A stretch of 64,000 bases of DNA from Escherichia coli (lineage in GTDB: Bacteria > Pseudomonadota > Gammaproteobacteria > Enterobacterales > Enterobacteriaceae), in assembly GCF_003790525.1 (NCBI RefSeq), contig NZ_CP033635.1, one strand, 5' to 3'. Of this stretch, positions 5,418 through 58,493 are shown in pieces. A model generated the notes under the pieces. That model made no database searches and was not told the origin of the DNA. It worked only from the letters and a program-made list of their open reading frames with translations. Both the position numbers and the translations under genes were made by a program. Numbering within the stretch: the stretch's first letter is position 1; every line of letters begins with the position of its first letter.

Positions 5418-7076
<1,659 letters not shown>

Positions 7077-7077
7077 T

Positions 7078-7215
7078 GATGTGCCACATCCGGCATGGTT
7101 TGCCGGATGTGGCGTATGCTAATAAGACGCGTCAGCGTCGCATCAGGCAACCGGCTCGGGCGTTAGATGTCGGATGCGGCGTAACCGCCTTATTCGGCCT
7201 ACAGGTTGCAGCACT
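7078..7215. repeat. REP/BIME-type repetitive extragenic palindromes (two or more units) between the mqo and eco 3' ends
   Basis: GCCGGATG...GGCGTAACCGCCTTATTCGGCCTAC-type palindromic units typical of enterobacterial REP sequences, in a convergent intergenic region. Confidence 0.7.
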
Positions 7216-7225
7216 TCACAGCAGT

Positions 7226-7714
7226 TTAGCGGACAACCGCGTTGTCAATTTTCTCTTCCGCCTTCCAGACACGGTACTTCACATCCACATTGTCTGGCGT
7301 ATACACCACGATCGGCAGCTTGCTGTTGTAACGCAGCATTCCAGCATCGCCCAGATACGCGGTGACAAATTTCTTCTCTTTCTTGCCATCCGGGCAAGCC
7401 ATCATCGTGGAAACCGGCGAGCTAACTTTATCAAAGACATAATAATCATAGCCCCAGCCTTCCAGCGTTTTGCTTTCCAGCTTCCCGCCGAGACGATGCA
7501 AATTGCAGTCGACTTCCAGCGTCTGACCGATTAACAGTTCTACTTTCAGGGTAGATTCATCTTCTTGCGGAGTTAACTGAATCACCTGACGCTTCATGCC
7601 TTTTTCAGCTTGTGGATAAGGTGCGATTTTTTCCAGTGGCTGGACGCTTTCTGCCGCCCAGGCGGAAGTGGTGGCGAAAGCGGCAAACAATACTGCAGGT
7701 AGAATGGTCTTCAT
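7226..7714 (-). CDS. eco: Ecotin, periplasmic serine-protease inhibitor
   Basis: ORF 7226..7735 trimmed to the [20 protein letters not shown] signal-peptide start (162 aa), preceded by a GGAAAG Shine-Dalgarno. Confidence 0.93.
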
Positions 7715-7848
7715 TTTTTTGCTTTCCTTCTTCATTTATAGGTTTTCACCGATGATGTCGCTGAAGGTTAACATATTCATCAGATTTATTAATTTGCTTT
7801 ATGAATAACTTAAAGAACATTCAGATAATTTTACCTGCTCTTTTAGTG

Positions 7849-8869: not shown

Positions 8870-11352
8870 AACTCAGTCGTCGTAGCTTTATGAAAGCTAA
8901 CGCCGTTGCGGCCGCTGCGGCGGCTGCCGGTCTCAGCGTGCCGGGCGTTGCCCGCGCCGTTGTTGGTCAGCAGGAAGCCATTAAATGGGATAAAGCGCCG
9001 TGCCGTTTCTGCGGTACGGGTTGCGGCGTTCTGGTCGGAACGCAGCAGGGGCGTGTGGTGGCCTGTCAGGGCGACCCGGACGCACCGGTTAACCGTGGCC
9101 TGAACTGCATTAAGGGCTATTTCCTGCCCAAAATCATGTACGGTAAAGACCGTTTGACGCAGCCGCTGCTGCGTATGAAAAACGGTAAATATGACAAAGA
9201 AGGCGAATTTACCCCAATCACCTGGGATCAGGCCTTCGATGTGATGGAAGAGAAATTTAAGACTGCCCTGAAAGAAAAAGGGCCGGAATCGATCGGTATG
9301 TTCGGTTCTGGTCAGTGGACTATCTGGGAAGGTTATGCCGCGTCCAAGTTGTTCAAAGCGGGCTTCCGTTCGAACAACATCGACCCGAACGCGCGTCACT
9401 GTATGGCGTCGGCAGTAGTTGGCTTTATGCGTACCTTTGGTATGGATGAGCCGATGGGCTGCTACGACGACATCGAGCAGGCTGACGCGTTTGTGCTGTG
9501 GGGCGCAAACATGGCGGAGATGCACCCGATCCTCTGGTCGCGCATCACTAACCGTCGTCTCTCTAACCAGAACGTTACCGTGGCGGTGCTTTCTACCTAC
9601 CAGCATCGTAGCTTCGAGCTGGCGGATAACGGCATCATCTTTACGCCGCAATCTGACCTGGTGATCCTGAACTATATCGCCAACTATATCATTCAAAACA
9701 ATGCGATAAATCAGGACTTCTTCAGCAAACACGTTAACCTGCGCAAAGGGGCGACGGACATCGGCTACGGTTTACGTCCGACCCATCCGCTGGAAAAAGC
9801 AGCGAAGAATCCGGGTTCTGACGCCTCCGAACCGATGAGCTTTGAAGATTACAAAGCCTTCGTTGCTGAATATACGCTGGAAAAAACCGCCGAAATGACC
9901 GGCGTGCCGAAAGACCAGTTAGAACAACTGGCGCAGCTGTATGCCGATCCGAACAAGAAAGTCATCTCCTACTGGACGATGGGCTTCAACCAGCATACCC
10001 GTGGTGTGTGGGCCAACAACCTGGTCTACAACCTGCACCTGCTGACCGGCAAAATTTCCCAGCCGGGTTGCGGTCCGTTCTCCCTGACCGGGCAGCCTTC
10101 CGCGTGTGGTACTGCGCGTGAAGTGGGCACCTTTGCTCACCGTCTGCCTGCGGACATGGTGGTGACTAACGAGAAACATCGTGATATTTGCGAGAAGAAG
10201 TGGAATATCCCGAGTGGCACCATTCCGGCGAAAATCGGTCTGCACGCGGTGGCACAAGACCGTGCGCTGAAAGACGGCAAACTGAATGTTTACTGGACCA
10301 TGTGTACCAATAACATGCAGGCCGGACCGAACATTAATGAAGAGCGTATGCCGGGCTGGCGCGATCCGCGCAACTTTATCATCGTTTCCGATCCGTATCC
10401 GACGGTCAGTGCGCTGGCAGCGGACTTGATCCTGCCGACCGCAATGTGGGTAGAGAAAGAGGGCGCTTACGGTAATGCCGAACGCCGTACTCAGTTCTGG
10501 CGTCAGCAGGTACAGGCACCGGGTGAAGCGAAATCGGATCTCTGGCAGTTAGTTCAGTTCTCCCGCCGCTTCAAAACTGAAGAAGTGTGGCCGGAAGAGT
10601 TGCTGGCGAAGAAACCTGAACTGCGTGGCAAAACGCTGTATGAGGTTCTGTATGCCACTCCGGAAGTGAGCAAATTCCCGCTATCCGAACTGGCGGAAGA
10701 TCAGCTGAACGATGAATCCCGCGAGCTGGGCTTCTATCTGCAAAAAGGGCTGTTCGAAGAGTACGCATGGTTTGGTCGCGGTCACGGTCACGATCTCGCG
10801 CCGTTCGATGACTACCACAAAGCACGCGGTCTGCGCTGGCCGGTGGTGAACGGTAAAGAAACGCAGTGGCGTTACAGCGAAGGTAACGACCCGTACGTGA
10901 AAGCGGGCGAAGGCTACAAGTTCTACGGTAAACCGGATGGCAAAGCGGTGATCTTCGCGCTGCCGTTCGAACCTGCGGCGGAAGCACCGGATGAAGAGTA
11001 CGACCTGTGGCTCTCTACCGGACGCGTCCTGGAGCACTGGCATACCGGCAGTATGACTCGCCGTGTACCGGAACTGCACCGCGCCTTCCCTGAAGCGGTC
11101 CTGTTTATTCACCCGCTGGATGCGAAAGCGCGCGATCTGCGTCGTGGCGACAAAGTGAAAGTGGTTTCTCGCCGTGGCGAAGTGATCTCGATTGTCGAAA
11201 CGCGCGGCCGTAACCGTCCACCGCAGGGCCTGGTGTACATGCCGTTCTTCGACGCCGCACAGCTGGTTAACAAACTGACGCTGGACGCGACCGATCCGCT
11301 CTCGAAAGAGACGGACTTCAAGAAGTGCGCGGTCAAACTGGAGAAGGTGTAA
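8866..11352 (+). CDS. napA: Periplasmic nitrate reductase catalytic subunit NapA (molybdopterin, Tat-exported)
   Basis: 828-aa ORF; twin-arginine signal ([28 protein letters not shown]); N-terminal Cys cluster CRFCGTGC. Confidence 0.96.
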
Positions 11353-52911: not shown

Positions 52912-54162
52912 ATGGATATAATGAGAAGTGTTGTGGGGATGGTGGTGTTACTGGCAATAGCATTTTTGTTGTCAGTGAATAAAAAGAGCATCAGTTTGCG
53001 CACGGTTGGAGCCGCGTTGCTGCTACAAATCGCCATTGGCGGAATCATGCTCTATTTTCCACCAGGAAAATGGGCGGTAGAACAGGCGGCATTAGGCGTT
53101 CATAAAGTGATGTCTTACAGTGATGCCGGTAGCGCCTTCATTTTTGGTTCGCTGGTTGGGCCGAAAATGGATGTCCTCTTTGACGGTGCGGGTTTTATCT
53201 TCGCCTTTCGCGTACTCCCGGCGATTATCTTCGTCACTGCGCTCATTAGTCTGCTGTACTACATTGGCGTGATGGGGCTGCTGATTCGCATCCTTGGCAG
53301 CATTTTCCAGAAAGCCCTCAACATCAGCAAAATCGAATCTTTTGTTGCGGTTACCACTATTTTCCTCGGGCAAAATGAGATCCCGGCGATCGTTAAACCG
53401 TTTATCGATCGCATGAATCGCAACGAGTTGTTTACCGCAATTTGTAGCGGGATGGCGTCCATTGCGGGTTCGATGATGATTGGTTATGCCGGAATGGGCG
53501 TACCAATTGACTACCTGTTAGCGGCATCGCTGATGGCGATCCCTGGCGGGATTTTGTTTGCACGTATTCTTAGCCCGGCAACCGAGCCTTCGCAGGTCAC
53601 ATTTGAAAATTTATCGTTCAGCGAAACGCCGCCAAAAAGCTTTATCGAAGCGGCGGCGAGCGGTGCGATGACCGGGCTGAAAATCGCCGCTGGTGTGGCG
53701 ACGGTGGTAATGGTATTTGTGGCAATTATTGCGCTGATCAACGGCATTATCGGCGGAATTGGCGGCTGGTTTGGCTTCGCCAATGCTTCTCTGGAAAGTA
53801 TTTTTGGCTATGTGCTGGCACCGCTGGCGTGGATCATGGGTGTGGACTGGAGTGATGCCAACCTTGCGGGTAGCCTGATTGGGCAGAAACTGGCAATTAA
53901 CGAATTCGTCGCTTACCTGAGTTTCTCCCCATACCTGCAAACGGGCGGCACGCTGGAAGTGAAAACCATTGCGATTATCTCCTTTGCGCTTTGTGGTTTT
54001 GCTAACTTTGGTTCTATCGGTGTTGTCGTTGGGGCATTTTCGGCTATTTCGCCAAAACGCGCACCGGAAATCGCTCAGCTTGGTTTACGGGCGCTGGCAG
54101 CAGCAACGCTTTCCAACCTGATGAGCGCGACCATTGCCGGGTTCTTTATTGGTTTAGCTTGA
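52912..54162 (+). CDS. psuT: NupC-family nucleoside permease (putative pseudouridine transporter)
   Basis: 416-aa polytopic ORF; near-identical paralog of the ORF at 56099..57349. Confidence 0.9.
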   Translation: MDIMRSVVGMVVLLAIAFLLSVNKKSISLRTVGAALLLQIAIGGIMLYFPPGKWAVEQAALGVHKVMSYSDAGSAFIFGSLVGPKMDVLFDGAGFIFAFRVLPAIIFVTALISLLYYIGVMGLLIRILGSIFQKALNISKIESFVAVTTIFLGQNEIPAIVKPFIDRMNRNELFTAICSGMASIAGSMMIGYAGMGVPIDYLLAASLMAIPGGILFARILSPATEPSQVTFENLSFSETPPKSFIEAAASGAMTGLKIAAGVATVVMVFVAIIALINGIIGGIGGWFGFANASLESIFGYVLAPLAWIMGVDWSDANLAGSLIGQKLAINEFVAYLSFSPYLQTGGTLEVKTIAIISFALCGFANFGSIGVVVGAFSAISPKRAPEIAQLGLRALAAATLSNLMSATIAGFFIGLA

Positions 54163-54229
54163 GTTTCATTGCCGGATGTACGCCTTATTAAGCGTTGCAT
54201 CCGGCAATCGCGCTATTGCAGATTATTTT

Positions 54230-54889
54230 TTACTGCATCATCCCGGAGAATTTATTCTCCGGGTCCATCTCCAGCGCCAGTCCTGACAACTGCTTTCTGT
54301 TTTTAATTAGATATCCTTTCTTGCTTTTAATTAATAAACCGTCGTGAATGAATTGCGCGAGAACATATAAAAGATGTCGATAAGAAACGCCTAAATACTC
54401 TGCCGCTTGCGTATGCTTTTCGTGATAAAGATCACCTTCTTGTGAGAGTAATATAAATGCTGCCAGGCGATTCACTAACGGAAATGATTGATTCTGAGTT
54501 AAAGAAACAATATTGCGATAATTTTTATGGCTTAAACTAACGCAGAGTTTTCGTAAAAATAGCGTGTCGTTTAATAACAGCGGACGGTAATGTTTCATGG
54601 GGAGTGCAAGGCACCAACACTCTTCAATCGCCTGCACCGCACGTGGTTCATGGTCTTTATCGATTAACTCAATCTCACCAATAAAACAGGGGGCGGCAAA
54701 GAAATCGATCAGCGACACGCGACCATTAGCAAGCGTGGCGTAAAGCCTGGCGCGGCCTCGCGTCAGGTAAAACAGCCATGACGGCTGTTGCCCTTCCTGC
54801 ACAATGTAGTCACGTGCTAAAAAATGAAACAGCCGTGCATCGGCTGAAACATCCGTTGAAAAGCAATCCTTAAACGCGGATTCACTCAT
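54230..54889 (-). CDS. yeiL: Crp/Fnr-family transcriptional regulator YeiL
   Basis: ORF 54230..54928; cNMP-binding-like domain plus C-terminal HTH; start trimmed to MSESAFKD (219 aa), uncertain. Confidence 0.88.
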
Positions 54890-56098: not shown

Positions 56099-57349
56099 AT
56101 GGATGTCATGAGAAGTGTTCTGGGAATGGTGGTATTGCTGGCAATTGCATTTTTGCTGTCAGTAAACAAGAAGAGGATCAGCCTGCGTACCGTTGGCGCG
56201 GCGTTAGTGTTACAGGTCGTGATTGGCGGCATTATGCTTTGGTTACCGCCAGGGCGTTGGGTCGCTGAAAAAGTCGCTTTTGGCGTCCATAAAGTGATGG
56301 CGTACAGCGACGCGGGTAGCGCATTTATCTTCGGTTCGCTGGTCGGGCCGAAAATGGACACGCTGTTTGATGGTGCAGGATTTATCTTTGGTTTCAGAGT
56401 ATTACCGGCAATTATCTTCGTCACCGCGCTGGTGAGTATTCTCTACTACATCGGTGTGATGGGGATCTTAATTCGCATTCTCGGCGGTATCTTCCAGAAA
56501 GCATTAAATATCAGCAAGATCGAGTCATTCGTCGCGGTCACTACCATTTTCCTCGGGCAAAACGAAATTCCGGCAATCGTCAAACCCTTTATCGATCGGC
56601 TGAATCGCAATGAATTATTTACAGCGATTTGTAGTGGCATGGCCTCGATTGCTGGTTCGACAATGATTGGTTACGCCGCACTGGGCGTACCTGTGGAATA
56701 TTTGCTGGCGGCATCGTTAATGGCGATCCCAGGCGGGATCTTGTTTGCCCGCCTGTTAAGCCCGGCTACGGAATCTTCGCAGGTTTCTTTTAATAACCTC
56801 TCTTTCACCGAAACACCGCCAAAAAGTATTATTGAGGCCGCTGCGACAGGGGCAATGACCGGGCTGAAAATCGCTGCGGGTGTGGCAACAGTGGTGATGG
56901 CATTTGTTGCCATCATTGCGTTAATTAACGGTATTATCGGCGGCGTTGGCGGCTGGTTTGGTTTTGAGCAAGCCTCGCTGGAGTCCATTTTAGGTTATCT
57001 GCTGGCCCCGCTGGCGTGGGTGATGGGGGTTGACTGGAGTGATGCAAATCTTGCCGGGAGTTTGATTGGGCAGAAGTTGGCGATCAATGAATTTGTCGCT
57101 TACCTCAATTTCTCACCTTATCTGCAAACAGCTGGCACGCTCGATGCTAAAACCGTGGCGATTATTTCCTTCGCGTTGTGCGGTTTCGCTAACTTTGGTT
57201 CTATCGGGGTAGTGGTTGGGGCATTTTCTGCGGTTGCGCCACACCGCGCGCCGGAAATCGCCCAGCTTGGTTTACGCGCGCTGGCGGCGGCGACACTTTC
57301 TAACCTGATGAGTGCCACCATTGCAGGATTCTTTATTGGCTTAGCGTAG
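56099..57349 (+). CDS. nupX: NupC-family nucleoside permease NupX
   Basis: 416-aa polytopic ORF, paralog of psuT. Confidence 0.92.
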   Translation: MDVMRSVLGMVVLLAIAFLLSVNKKRISLRTVGAALVLQVVIGGIMLWLPPGRWVAEKVAFGVHKVMAYSDAGSAFIFGSLVGPKMDTLFDGAGFIFGFRVLPAIIFVTALVSILYYIGVMGILIRILGGIFQKALNISKIESFVAVTTIFLGQNEIPAIVKPFIDRLNRNELFTAICSGMASIAGSTMIGYAALGVPVEYLLAASLMAIPGGILFARLLSPATESSQVSFNNLSFTETPPKSIIEAAATGAMTGLKIAAGVATVVMAFVAIIALINGIIGGVGGWFGFEQASLESILGYLLAPLAWVMGVDWSDANLAGSLIGQKLAINEFVAYLNFSPYLQTAGTLDAKTVAIISFALCGFANFGSIGVVVGAFSAVAPHRAPEIAQLGLRALAAATLSNLMSATIAGFFIGLA

Positions 57350-57404
57350 TGCGCGAGTTATGAGCCGGATAAGACGCGGTCAAGCGTCGAATCCGGCAAG
57401 ATTG

Positions 57405-58493
57405 TTACACCATCGGCACTAATGAAAGCGCGTTATCGGCAGACAGGGTAGGGTTGTTTAAGCTGCCGCTGGCGCGTGAAATTGCCGCGCAGGCCATCGC
57501 AAAACGGGCGCTGTCACGGAAACTGCTTCCTTCCAGAAAGCTATACACCAGGCCCGCCATAAAACCATCGTCAGCACCAAAACTGTCTACCGTCGTATGC
57601 GCTGGCGCAGTCAGCAAAAATTGTTCGCCATCCTTTTGGCTGCAATAAACAGACTCATCGGGCAAATAAACAAACAGTTGCTGAACGCCTTGCTGATGCA
57701 ACGCATTCACTGCGGCATTACGATCAGCATCGCGGGTTATCGGCTGGCCCCATAAAATTTCCAGCTCCGACAAAGTGGGTTTCAGAGTGTGAATATGCGC
57801 CAGCCAGTGTTTGATTTTGCCCGCTTTGAATTCTGAAACGGTATCGACAAACACCGGGATTTCATCAGCGAGGGTAAAGACCCATTCCAGCGCCTCGGCT
57901 GTCAGGTTACAATCTGCCAGTACCACGCCCGCATGACGAAGTAAATCGCGCGACCCGTTCAGTAGTTGCGGTGTCAACTGATCCAGCAGATGGGTATCGT
58001 TAATCGCCAGCACGGTTTGATCGTCTCGATTGGCAATTGCCAGATACGTCGATGTGCTTTGACCATGTAAACGAACGCAGCCGGAGACATTCACGCCGGC
58101 GCGGCGCGTTTCTTCCAGGAGCATTTCGCCATAAAAGTCATCGCCAATCACTGAAAGCAAATGAACGTCGCGGCCTAACAGCGCCAGATTGTGGGCGATA
58201 TTGCGTCCAACGCCGCCTGCCGAGCAATGAATGGTACCGGGATGAGAAGCCGCTTGCGGGTAACGGATATCCGCCATCCCGCGAATATCCATATTGATTG
58301 TCCCCACCACTACGCAGTATTCCTGCTCGGTGAGAATGTAACCTTTGCCTTTAATCCGTCCTTTGCGCATTAAATCCATAATATGCGCTGCAACACGCGA
58401 ACGGCTGATTTGCAGCATATCCGCAATTTCGTTCTGCTGAATCAGCGGGTTACGCCTTAATATTGCAAGGATCTCCTTCTCCCGGTTATTCAT
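57405..58493 (-). CDS. yeiI: Uncharacterised fusion protein: N-terminal winged-helix HTH + PfkB-family kinase
   Basis: 362-aa ORF; N-terminal HTH (EILAILRRNPLIQQNEIADMLQISRSRVAAHI) then PfkB kinase domain (AGGVGRNIAHNLALLG, GADDGFMAG) paralogous to PsuK. Confidence 0.88.
   Translation of the reverse strand: MNNREKEILAILRRNPLIQQNEIADMLQISRSRVAAHIMDLMRKGRIKGKGYILTEQEYCVVVGTINMDIRGMADIRYPQAASHPGTIHCSAGGVGRNIAHNLALLGRDVHLLSVIGDDFYGEMLLEETRRAGVNVSGCVRLHGQSTSTYLAIANRDDQTVLAINDTHLLDQLTPQLLNGSRDLLRHAGVVLADCNLTAEALEWVFTLADEIPVFVDTVSEFKAGKIKHWLAHIHTLKPTLSELEILWGQPITRDADRNAAVNALHQQGVQQLFVYLPDESVYCSQKDGEQFLLTAPAHTTVDSFGADDGFMAGLVYSFLEGSSFRDSARFAMACAAISRASGSLNNPTLSADNALSLVPMV

Follow-up and report, generated by a model that had tools for sequence, protein, structure and literature searches.

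The spacer between the convergent genes mqo and eco, in the 64-kb stretch of Escherichia coli DNA analysed here in full (hereafter the window), consists largely of palindromic sequence. This raises the question of whether this material, and the palindromes in three further spacers of the window, belong to the REP/BIME family, and in what state they have survived. Elements of this family have been described for about 40 years. A sequence-only reading had placed classic REP units between mqo and eco and downstream of yejK, and REP-like forms between psuT and yeiL and between nupX and yeiI, all at convergent gene ends and all as expected in E. coli. This reading holds, being supported at three of the four sites by direct matches to REP consensus sequences and at the fourth by descent. 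We put at about 90% the probability that the elements belong to the E. coli REP/BIME family (palindromic units, REPINs), either as members or as decayed derivatives of it. They are ordinary and already known elements, mostly present as single and partly decayed copies.

REP-type palindromes in four convergent spacers

Positions 6700-7600 of the window match E. coli SMS-3-5 (NC_010498.1) at 100% identity, as they do some 37 further complete genomes, and the RefSeq annotation of SMS-3-5 places mqo at 5430-7076 on the plus strand and eco at 7226-7735 on the minus strand. In the same annotation the pairs yejK(+)/rplY(-), psuT(+)/yeiL(-) and nupX(+)/yeiI(-) are likewise convergent, as had been claimed, and every REP-type palindrome of the window is intergenic, in keeping with the extragenic position of REPs. 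The eco gene is annotated with 510 nt in SMS-3-5 and some strains and with 489 nt in K-12 and others, a difference of start-codon choice with no relation to the repeats. The RefSeq record of K-12 has no REP features annotated at eco-mqo; the sequences were compared directly instead.

The whole 64 kb was scanned by blastn-short with Y, Z1 and Z2 REP consensus sequences, which are consistent with the description in PMC3333891. This recovered four significant matches only, two forming the Z2/Y pair between mqo and eco, one downstream of yejK and one, of Z2-like type, between nupX and yeiI (Table 1). As there were no others, the sequence-only reading had missed no REP of the 64 kb, and every element it listed can be traced to a REP. 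The REP head motif occurs 18 times in the window against 9.0 +/- 2.8 expected, a count reached by 0 of 100 shuffles, and the tail motif 3 times against 0.25 expected. An inverted-repeat scan of the whole window found no additional REP-like palindromes. Rfam searches of the whole window at gathering thresholds returned nothing in the four spacers, the only matches being a tRNA at 23960-24033 (-), tRNA-Pro in the SMS-3-5 annotation, and the L25 ribosomal-protein leader upstream of rplY at 27749-27774 (-; 46.9 bits). Queries containing the window REPs match at more than one place in a genome (median 2, maximum 10).

Table 1. REP-type and associated elements in the four convergent spacers of the window
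Element	Position	Strand	Sequence and remarks	Consensus match (blastn-short)	Fold energy (kcal/mol)
Perfect hairpin, mqo-eco	7083-7113	none	13-bp stem GCCACATCCGGCA/TGCCGGATGTGGC, 5-nt loop tggtt, arms 100% complementary		-28.1 and -27.2, one value per strand; z -6.1 and -7.7
Z2 REP, mqo-eco	7114-7150	minus	classical GCC...CTAC reading on minus strand	7119-7148, minus, E 1.5e-7, 28/30 positions	-12.1 and -14.4
Head-to-head linker, 18 nt, mqo-eco	7151-7168		between Z2 and Y; position of the BIME-2 'S' linker, by comparison with the K-12 113-bp unit		
Y REP, mqo-eco	7169-7202	plus	GTCGGATGCGGCGTAACCGCCTTATTCGGCCTAC; CTAC/GTAG retained	7171-7202, plus, E 1.4e-7, 29/32 positions	plus -15.6, minus -8.8 (z -0.15)
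Tail-to-tail BIME-2 linker remnant, mqo-eco	7203-7225		AGGTTGCAGCACTTCACAGCAGT, reaching the eco stop codon (7226-7228)		
Single Y REP, yejK-rplY	27324-27357	plus	GCCAGATGCGGCGTGAACGCCTTATCTGGCCTGC; 18 nt past yejK stop codon	27324-27355, plus, E 1.5e-8, 30/32 positions	-19.8 and -19.4; z -4.5 and -4.9
REP-derived palindrome, psuT-yeiL	54168-54211	none	perfect GCCGGATG/CATCCGGC outer stem		-24.9 and -24.6
Lone Z2-like REP, nupX-yeiI	57360-57397	minus	GCCGGATTCGACGCTTGACCGCGTCTTATCCGGCTCAT; ATGA at the GTAG position	57364-57397, minus, E 0.003	-23.7 and -22.3

Hairpin energies lie far below those of shuffled sequences in five of the six elements. REPs are imperfect palindromes of 30-40 nt with a 2-nt mismatch in the stem. 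This mismatch, seen as an internal loop (2x2 or 1x1) that separates the foot from the upper stem, is present in the Z2, Y, yejK and nupX units and absent from the 7083-7113 hairpin, which is perfect, and from the psuT palindrome, which has a perfect 8-bp outer stem. The tetranucleotide GTAG/CTAC is kept at one place only among the six palindromes, at 7199-7202 in the Y unit; its position is occupied by GTAT in the Z2 unit (7114-7117), by CTGC behind yejK (27354-27357) and by ATGA behind nupX (57360-57363). Since GTAG is present in the internal Z2 units of other strains and in the K-12-type alleles of the psuT and nupX sites, the window units are best regarded as degenerate members of the family and not as non-members.

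Anatomy of the mqo-eco spacer

The spacer (7077-7225, 149 bp) is nearly all repeat-derived, and BIME material makes up everything in it except six bases. Its core corresponds to a BIME-2, which is defined by z2 and y units in inverse orientation with a short linker between them (PMC3333891). The segment 7114-7202 has this layout, with a minus-strand Z2, the 18-nt linker and a plus-strand Y, and the minimum-energy fold of the plus strand pairs the Z2 with the Y. The sequence-only reading had not recognised this BIME-2, nor that the hairpin beside it and the psuT palindrome are without the features that define a REP. The 23 nucleotides that follow are homologous to GGGGTGGAGCACTTCACAGCGGT, the internal tail-to-tail linker that separates units in K-12.

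Both REPs of the unit show signs of decay. In the Z2 the foot is degenerate, as the plus strand reads GTATGC-TAAT where GTAGGCCTGAT is expected, and both the GTAG and one foot base have been lost; the E. coli GTATGC-TGAT foot is a decayed form of GTAGGCCTGAT. This first Z2 is degenerate in all sampled E. coli alleles, and the internal units retain GTAG. In the foot of the Y there are two G-T/T-G positions, which are wobbles in the plus-strand RNA and C-A mismatches on the minus strand. The stability of the Y fold in the mqo-sense RNA is due to these G-U wobbles, while on the minus strand the unit folds no better than shuffles. Its 3' arm is unique among the 33 Y units sampled. The classic description proposed for this locus stands for the Z2/Y pair with respect to the consensus match, and fails with respect to the exact GCCGGATG head, for the heads of these units read GTCGGATG in the Y and GCCTGATG in the Z2.

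Nor does it stand for the hairpin at 7083-7113, which is no REP unit and begins 6 nt past the mqo stop codon. Its arms are two copies of the REP 'GCCGGATGTGGC' arm (of the 'GCCGGATGYGGC' type) placed head to head, with neither stem mismatch nor GTAG/CTAC, and against the REP consensus it gives a half-arm match alone (E 0.58). A search for the exact hairpin pattern in 100,044 species genomes found one Escherichia sp. and one Paenibacillus, a pattern too strict to measure phylogenetic spread; the result shows that this exact hairpin sequence does not form a dispersed family. The match in Paenibacillus terrigena, an unrelated Firmicute (10692-10720 of the retrieved locus), has both 13-nt arms exact around a 3-nt loop and is taken as a chance palindrome. 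We also considered the possibility that the right arm of the hairpin is a Y unit truncated by deletion, a candidate weakened by Escherichia sp. E1V33, in which the hairpin directly abuts the intact GTAG of a Z2. In the GZM7 allele the right arm runs on at the start of the spacer into a complete Y unit, and this allele is probably a recombinant of the hairpin arm with a downstream Y unit.

Variation of the array among strains

In the K-12 spacer of 714 bp (K-12 positions 2,304,394-2,305,107) this hairpin is present too, and after it a 113-bp Z2/Y unit is repeated in tandem 5.9 times, with 96% identity between the copies. A BIME is found at mqo-eco in every strain sampled, and across seven strains the number of units ranges from 1 to 7: one in the window (149 bp), two in D3 (264 bp), three in M171-1 (377 bp), five in WP7-S17 (601 bp), about 5.5 in GZM7 (649 bp; 5 Z2 and 6 Y), six in K-12 and seven in CUWW10 (829 bp). 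The short form of the window matches across the whole spacer in 3,449 of 5,423 matching genomes (64%), a class of which one sampled member has two units. In the remaining genomes the alignments stop after the first unit, as in K-12; alignments of multi-unit genomes are continuous as far as query position 303 (window 7229), where they are interrupted. Of 5,426 genomes, three give no match at all to the mqo-eco query. In the laboratory strain E. coli C43(DE3) (NZ_CP011938.1) the query matches only an 88-bp REP elsewhere, and the locus has apparently been deleted.

The hairpin itself lies behind mqo in 5,414 of 5,426 E. coli genomes, of which 1,336 show it at 90-95% identity; in the four alleles sampled from among such diverged hairpins, two extra nucleotides, GG, are inserted into the right arm. 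As Escherichia sp. E1V33 also has the hairpin and three units, the first Z2 opening with an intact GTAG directly after the hairpin, the arrangement predates the diversification of E. coli. Strain-to-strain variation in BIME copy number is published, and the number of REPs is lower in SMS-3-5 and IAI39 of clade F (<310) than in clade A (about 546) (PMC3333891). The single mqo-eco unit of the window against six in K-12 matches this low count of clade F. Two sampled alleles, that of D3 among them, carry ...TGATAAGACG...CGTCTTATCA... in the first Z2, in which the GC side of the stem mismatch has become TT and the stem is perfect, the pattern expected of hairpin-templated quasipalindrome correction.

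Taken with the yejK REP, which is found in 5,423 of 5,426 complete genomes, the near-universal hairpin and the BIME in every sampled strain bear out the expectation that such elements belong to the ordinary E. coli genome. The array behaves as a variable-number repeat, of 149 to 829 bp in the sampled strains, which can break assemblies; one K-12-derived assembly ended in a 613-bp repeat at this very locus (PMC10044804).

The yejK, nupX and psuT sites

The palindrome behind yejK is a clean, textbook Y REP. One of its foot pairs shows a compensated change (G>A/C>T, giving GCCAGAT/ATCTGGC), and the element is identical in a laboratory strain. The yejK-rplY spacer also contains, forty nucleotides downstream of this REP and distinct from it, an intrinsic terminator that is perfect and bidirectional (27399-27426; AAAAAACCCCGC-cgga-GCGGGGTTTTTT).

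Between nupX and yeiI lies a lone Z2-like REP of classical geometry, whose stem segments of 7 bp and 5 bp are separated by a 2x2 internal loop. In K-12-type strains the same spacer holds a two-REP BIME made up of a Z1 unit, a linker and a GTAG-bearing unit; the window form occurs in 4,157 of 5,421 genomes at a coverage of at least 80% of the query.

The psuT-yeiL palindrome is the one site recognised by descent. Against the REP consensus it (54171-54205) is not significant (E 1.7-45), the common part being the GCCGGATG/CATCCGGC outer stem, and it has neither the 2-nt mismatch nor GTAG/CTAC. E. coli genomes carry two allele classes here. The K-12-type allele, carried by 2,421 genomes, is a proper REP with its GTAG, GTAGACCGGATAAAACGTATTAAGCGTTGCATCCGGC, to which the right half of the window allele is identical. 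Its left half matches another sequence, the head of the Z1 unit behind nupX in strains of the K-12 type. Because a perfect palindrome arises when the 5' arm of an inverted REP is joined to a direct REP's 3' arm, we infer that the site is a collapsed tail-to-tail BIME. The label REP-like was apt here, for an element that shares the outer stem and appears to be a REP by descent.

The genes nupX and psuT are paralogues, each with a homologous REP behind it (window 57170-57410 and 53985-54235). The last ~12 coding bases of the window psuT, its stop codon and the first ~20 bases of the spacer match the K-12-type nupX (GGTTTAGCTTGAGT.TCATTGCC.GATG), and the end of the window nupX resembles the psuT end of K-12-type strains. 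From these alignments it looks as if gene conversion or recombination between the 3' ends of the paralogues had yielded two allele classes common in E. coli. In E. coli EC2341 a 129-bp insertion (236-364 of the retrieved locus) lies beside the psuT-yeiL palindrome, at about window position 54214. Both the ERIC1R primer sequence and the ERIC2 primer sequence, the latter as its reverse complement, occur in it without a mismatch, which identifies it as an ERIC/IRU element present in some strains only.

Proposed origin through RayT and probable present state

We propose that the elements are non-autonomous DNA, made and rearranged on single-stranded DNA by the single-copy Y1 transposase RayT (TnpA-REP). 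The rayT gene (WP_000006244.1) lies outside the window and is intact in SMS-3-5 between yafL and flhA (254577-255074 of NC_010498.1), so that a cognate RAYT gene is available through this strain, which is taken to be the window strain or nearly identical to it. RayT binds the single-stranded REP hairpin, for which it needs a 5' GTAG and the 2-nt stem mismatch; it cleaves at CT in the inverted partner REP or in the linker and in vitro it recombines BIMEs, those used being other than the BIMEs of the window, and a mutation that removes the stem mismatch abolishes binding by TnpA-REP in vitro (PMC3333891). Unequal recombination would expand and contract the tandem units, which fits the range of 1 to 7 at mqo-eco, and the elements would build up at convergent gene ends because their insertion there leaves promoters intact.

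Judged by the GTAG and the mismatch, it is plausible that only the Y at 7169-7202, in its minus-strand reading, remains a predicted RayT site in the window; the Z2 at 7114-7150 still carries TGCC|TGAT, the cleavage motif of its partner. As GTAG/CTAC is kept in only one of six palindromes, activity of RayT on the window copies is doubtful. Most of these copies are probably, from the state of their recognition sequences, immobile fossils retained as 3'-end structures. That most copies lack the RayT signal in the low-REP background of clade F fits a decaying REP population.

Possible functions at 3' ends and alternative readings

No hairpin followed by a T-tract was found in the mqo-eco, psuT-yeiL and nupX-yeiI spacers, so that in these three the palindromes are the only strong 3'-end structures, and the REP/BIME elements explain every strong structure there. 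The distance from stop codon to stem is 6 nt for mqo, 5-8 for psuT, 14 for nupX, 7 for yeiI, 18 for yejK and 23 for eco. Hairpins in the 3' untranslated RNA are expected to block 3'-to-5' exonucleases and so stabilise the upstream message, and to attenuate read-through into the converging gene. Those whose distance to the stop codon is below 16 nt (mqo, psuT, nupX and yeiI) are also expected to slow terminating ribosomes, an effect placed within about 15-16 nt of the stop codon in 2015 work, as summarised in PMC12306157. At the level of DNA, gyrase binds REPs, most strongly BIME-2, for which high-affinity binding and cleavage by the enzyme are described (PMC1475751, PMC2817692), and IHF binding, Pol I binding and Rho-dependent termination are reported for REPs (PMC2817692, PMC1475751); the BIME-2 behind mqo could likewise be a preferred gyrase site. 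These physiological roles are carried over from the literature on other REP loci and would apply here by analogy.

The position of the palindromes could also be explained if they were ordinary Rho-independent terminators of the converging genes with an incidental resemblance to REPs. They do stand where terminators are expected and are the sole strong hairpins in three of the four spacers, but no T-tract follows any of the REP-type palindromes on either strand, and the sole true terminator of the four spacers, that near the yejK REP, is a separate element. REP hairpins are reported to act by way of Rho and of RNA stability. With consensus matches far above chance and a unit that is tandemly amplified in other strains, unlike terminators, we regard this explanation as very improbable. 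A further point against the REP/BIME assignment is that the 7083-7113 and psuT palindromes lack two defining features of REPs and could be independent 3'-end structures with no more than a resemblance to REP arms. They could also be symmetrised REP derivatives that selection has retained, immune to RayT and acting as modulators of 3' ends or of translation termination. This would account for the presence of the mqo hairpin in nearly all E. coli genomes and in another Escherichia species, for the two having the most stable structures of the set (-28 and -25 kcal/mol), and for the start of both at most 15 nt from a stop codon, in the range for which an effect on translation is reported (PMC12306157). 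The loss of the mismatch is moreover the very mutation that abolishes TnpA-REP binding in vitro (PMC3333891). Against this, about a quarter of the genomes (1,336) have a diverged hairpin, so that a perfect stem is not a conserved feature, the psuT site has a second common allele, the K-12-type REP of 2,421 genomes, and conservation of this order is also expected of neutral sequence within one species. We hold retention by selection to be unlikely. A wider proposal, in which the host keeps both palindromes to tune mqo and psuT decay and translation termination and also uses the variation from 1 to 7 BIME-2 units as a dial on mqo/eco expression or on local gyrase loading, seems to us somewhat less likely still.

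The Z2-Y unit could instead be transcribed into a nucleoid RNA like naRNA4, with HU bridging cruciform REP sites and so condensing the chromosome. REP325 likewise consists of six repeats in a Y/Z2 array, the effect is reported to require an RNA in which Z2 and Y each form a hairpin (PMC4550694), and the K-12 eco-mqo array shares this architecture, which makes such an RNA conceivable for that array. However, in the window there is only one unit, its feet are degenerate and its minus-strand Y shows no folding beyond that of shuffles, the mqo-eco spacer contains no promoter-like site, and mqo is named 0 times in the text of PMC4550694; of all the alternatives this has the slightest chance of being correct. 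The preferred reading remains that of REP/BIME elements in various stages of decay. What the present analysis adds is their dissection into a BIME-2 unit with an atypical hairpin, a clean REP, a lone degenerate REP and a collapsed BIME, together with the variation in unit number at mqo-eco between strains; beyond correct annotation the practical importance is small.

Comparison with known systems

Among known systems the mqo-eco locus comes closest to BIME-2 in the Gilson/Bachellier nomenclature (via PMC3333891), with which it shares the inverse Z2 and Y placed head to head across a short linker at 7114-7202 and, in K-12 and other strains, tandem 113-bp units whose copy number varies between strains. 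Unlike a typical BIME-2, the window has one unit, whose mqo-proximal Z2 has lost GTAG and a foot base and whose Y foot has two non-Watson-Crick positions, and an extra perfect hairpin precedes it. The element behind yejK resembles a single Y REP in its 7-bp foot, 2-nt mismatch, 4-bp upper stem and tetraloop, in its match to the consensus at 30 of 32 positions and in its extragenic place downstream of a stop codon; it differs in the tail, CTGC and not CTAC, and in one compensated foot pair.

The REP325/naRNA4 locus (PMC4550694) is also a Y/Z2 array between two genes, and K-12 has six repeats at both loci, but its unit measures 77 bp against 113 bp at mqo-eco, its linkers are different, and the window strain has one unit. 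With the REPIN-RAYT systems of Bertels and Rainey the comparison differs in that most window copies are without the recognition tetranucleotide and rayT lies outside the window; the likeness lies in the inverted Z2/Y pair, which can fold into one long hairpin, and in the single-copy rayT of the nearest genome.
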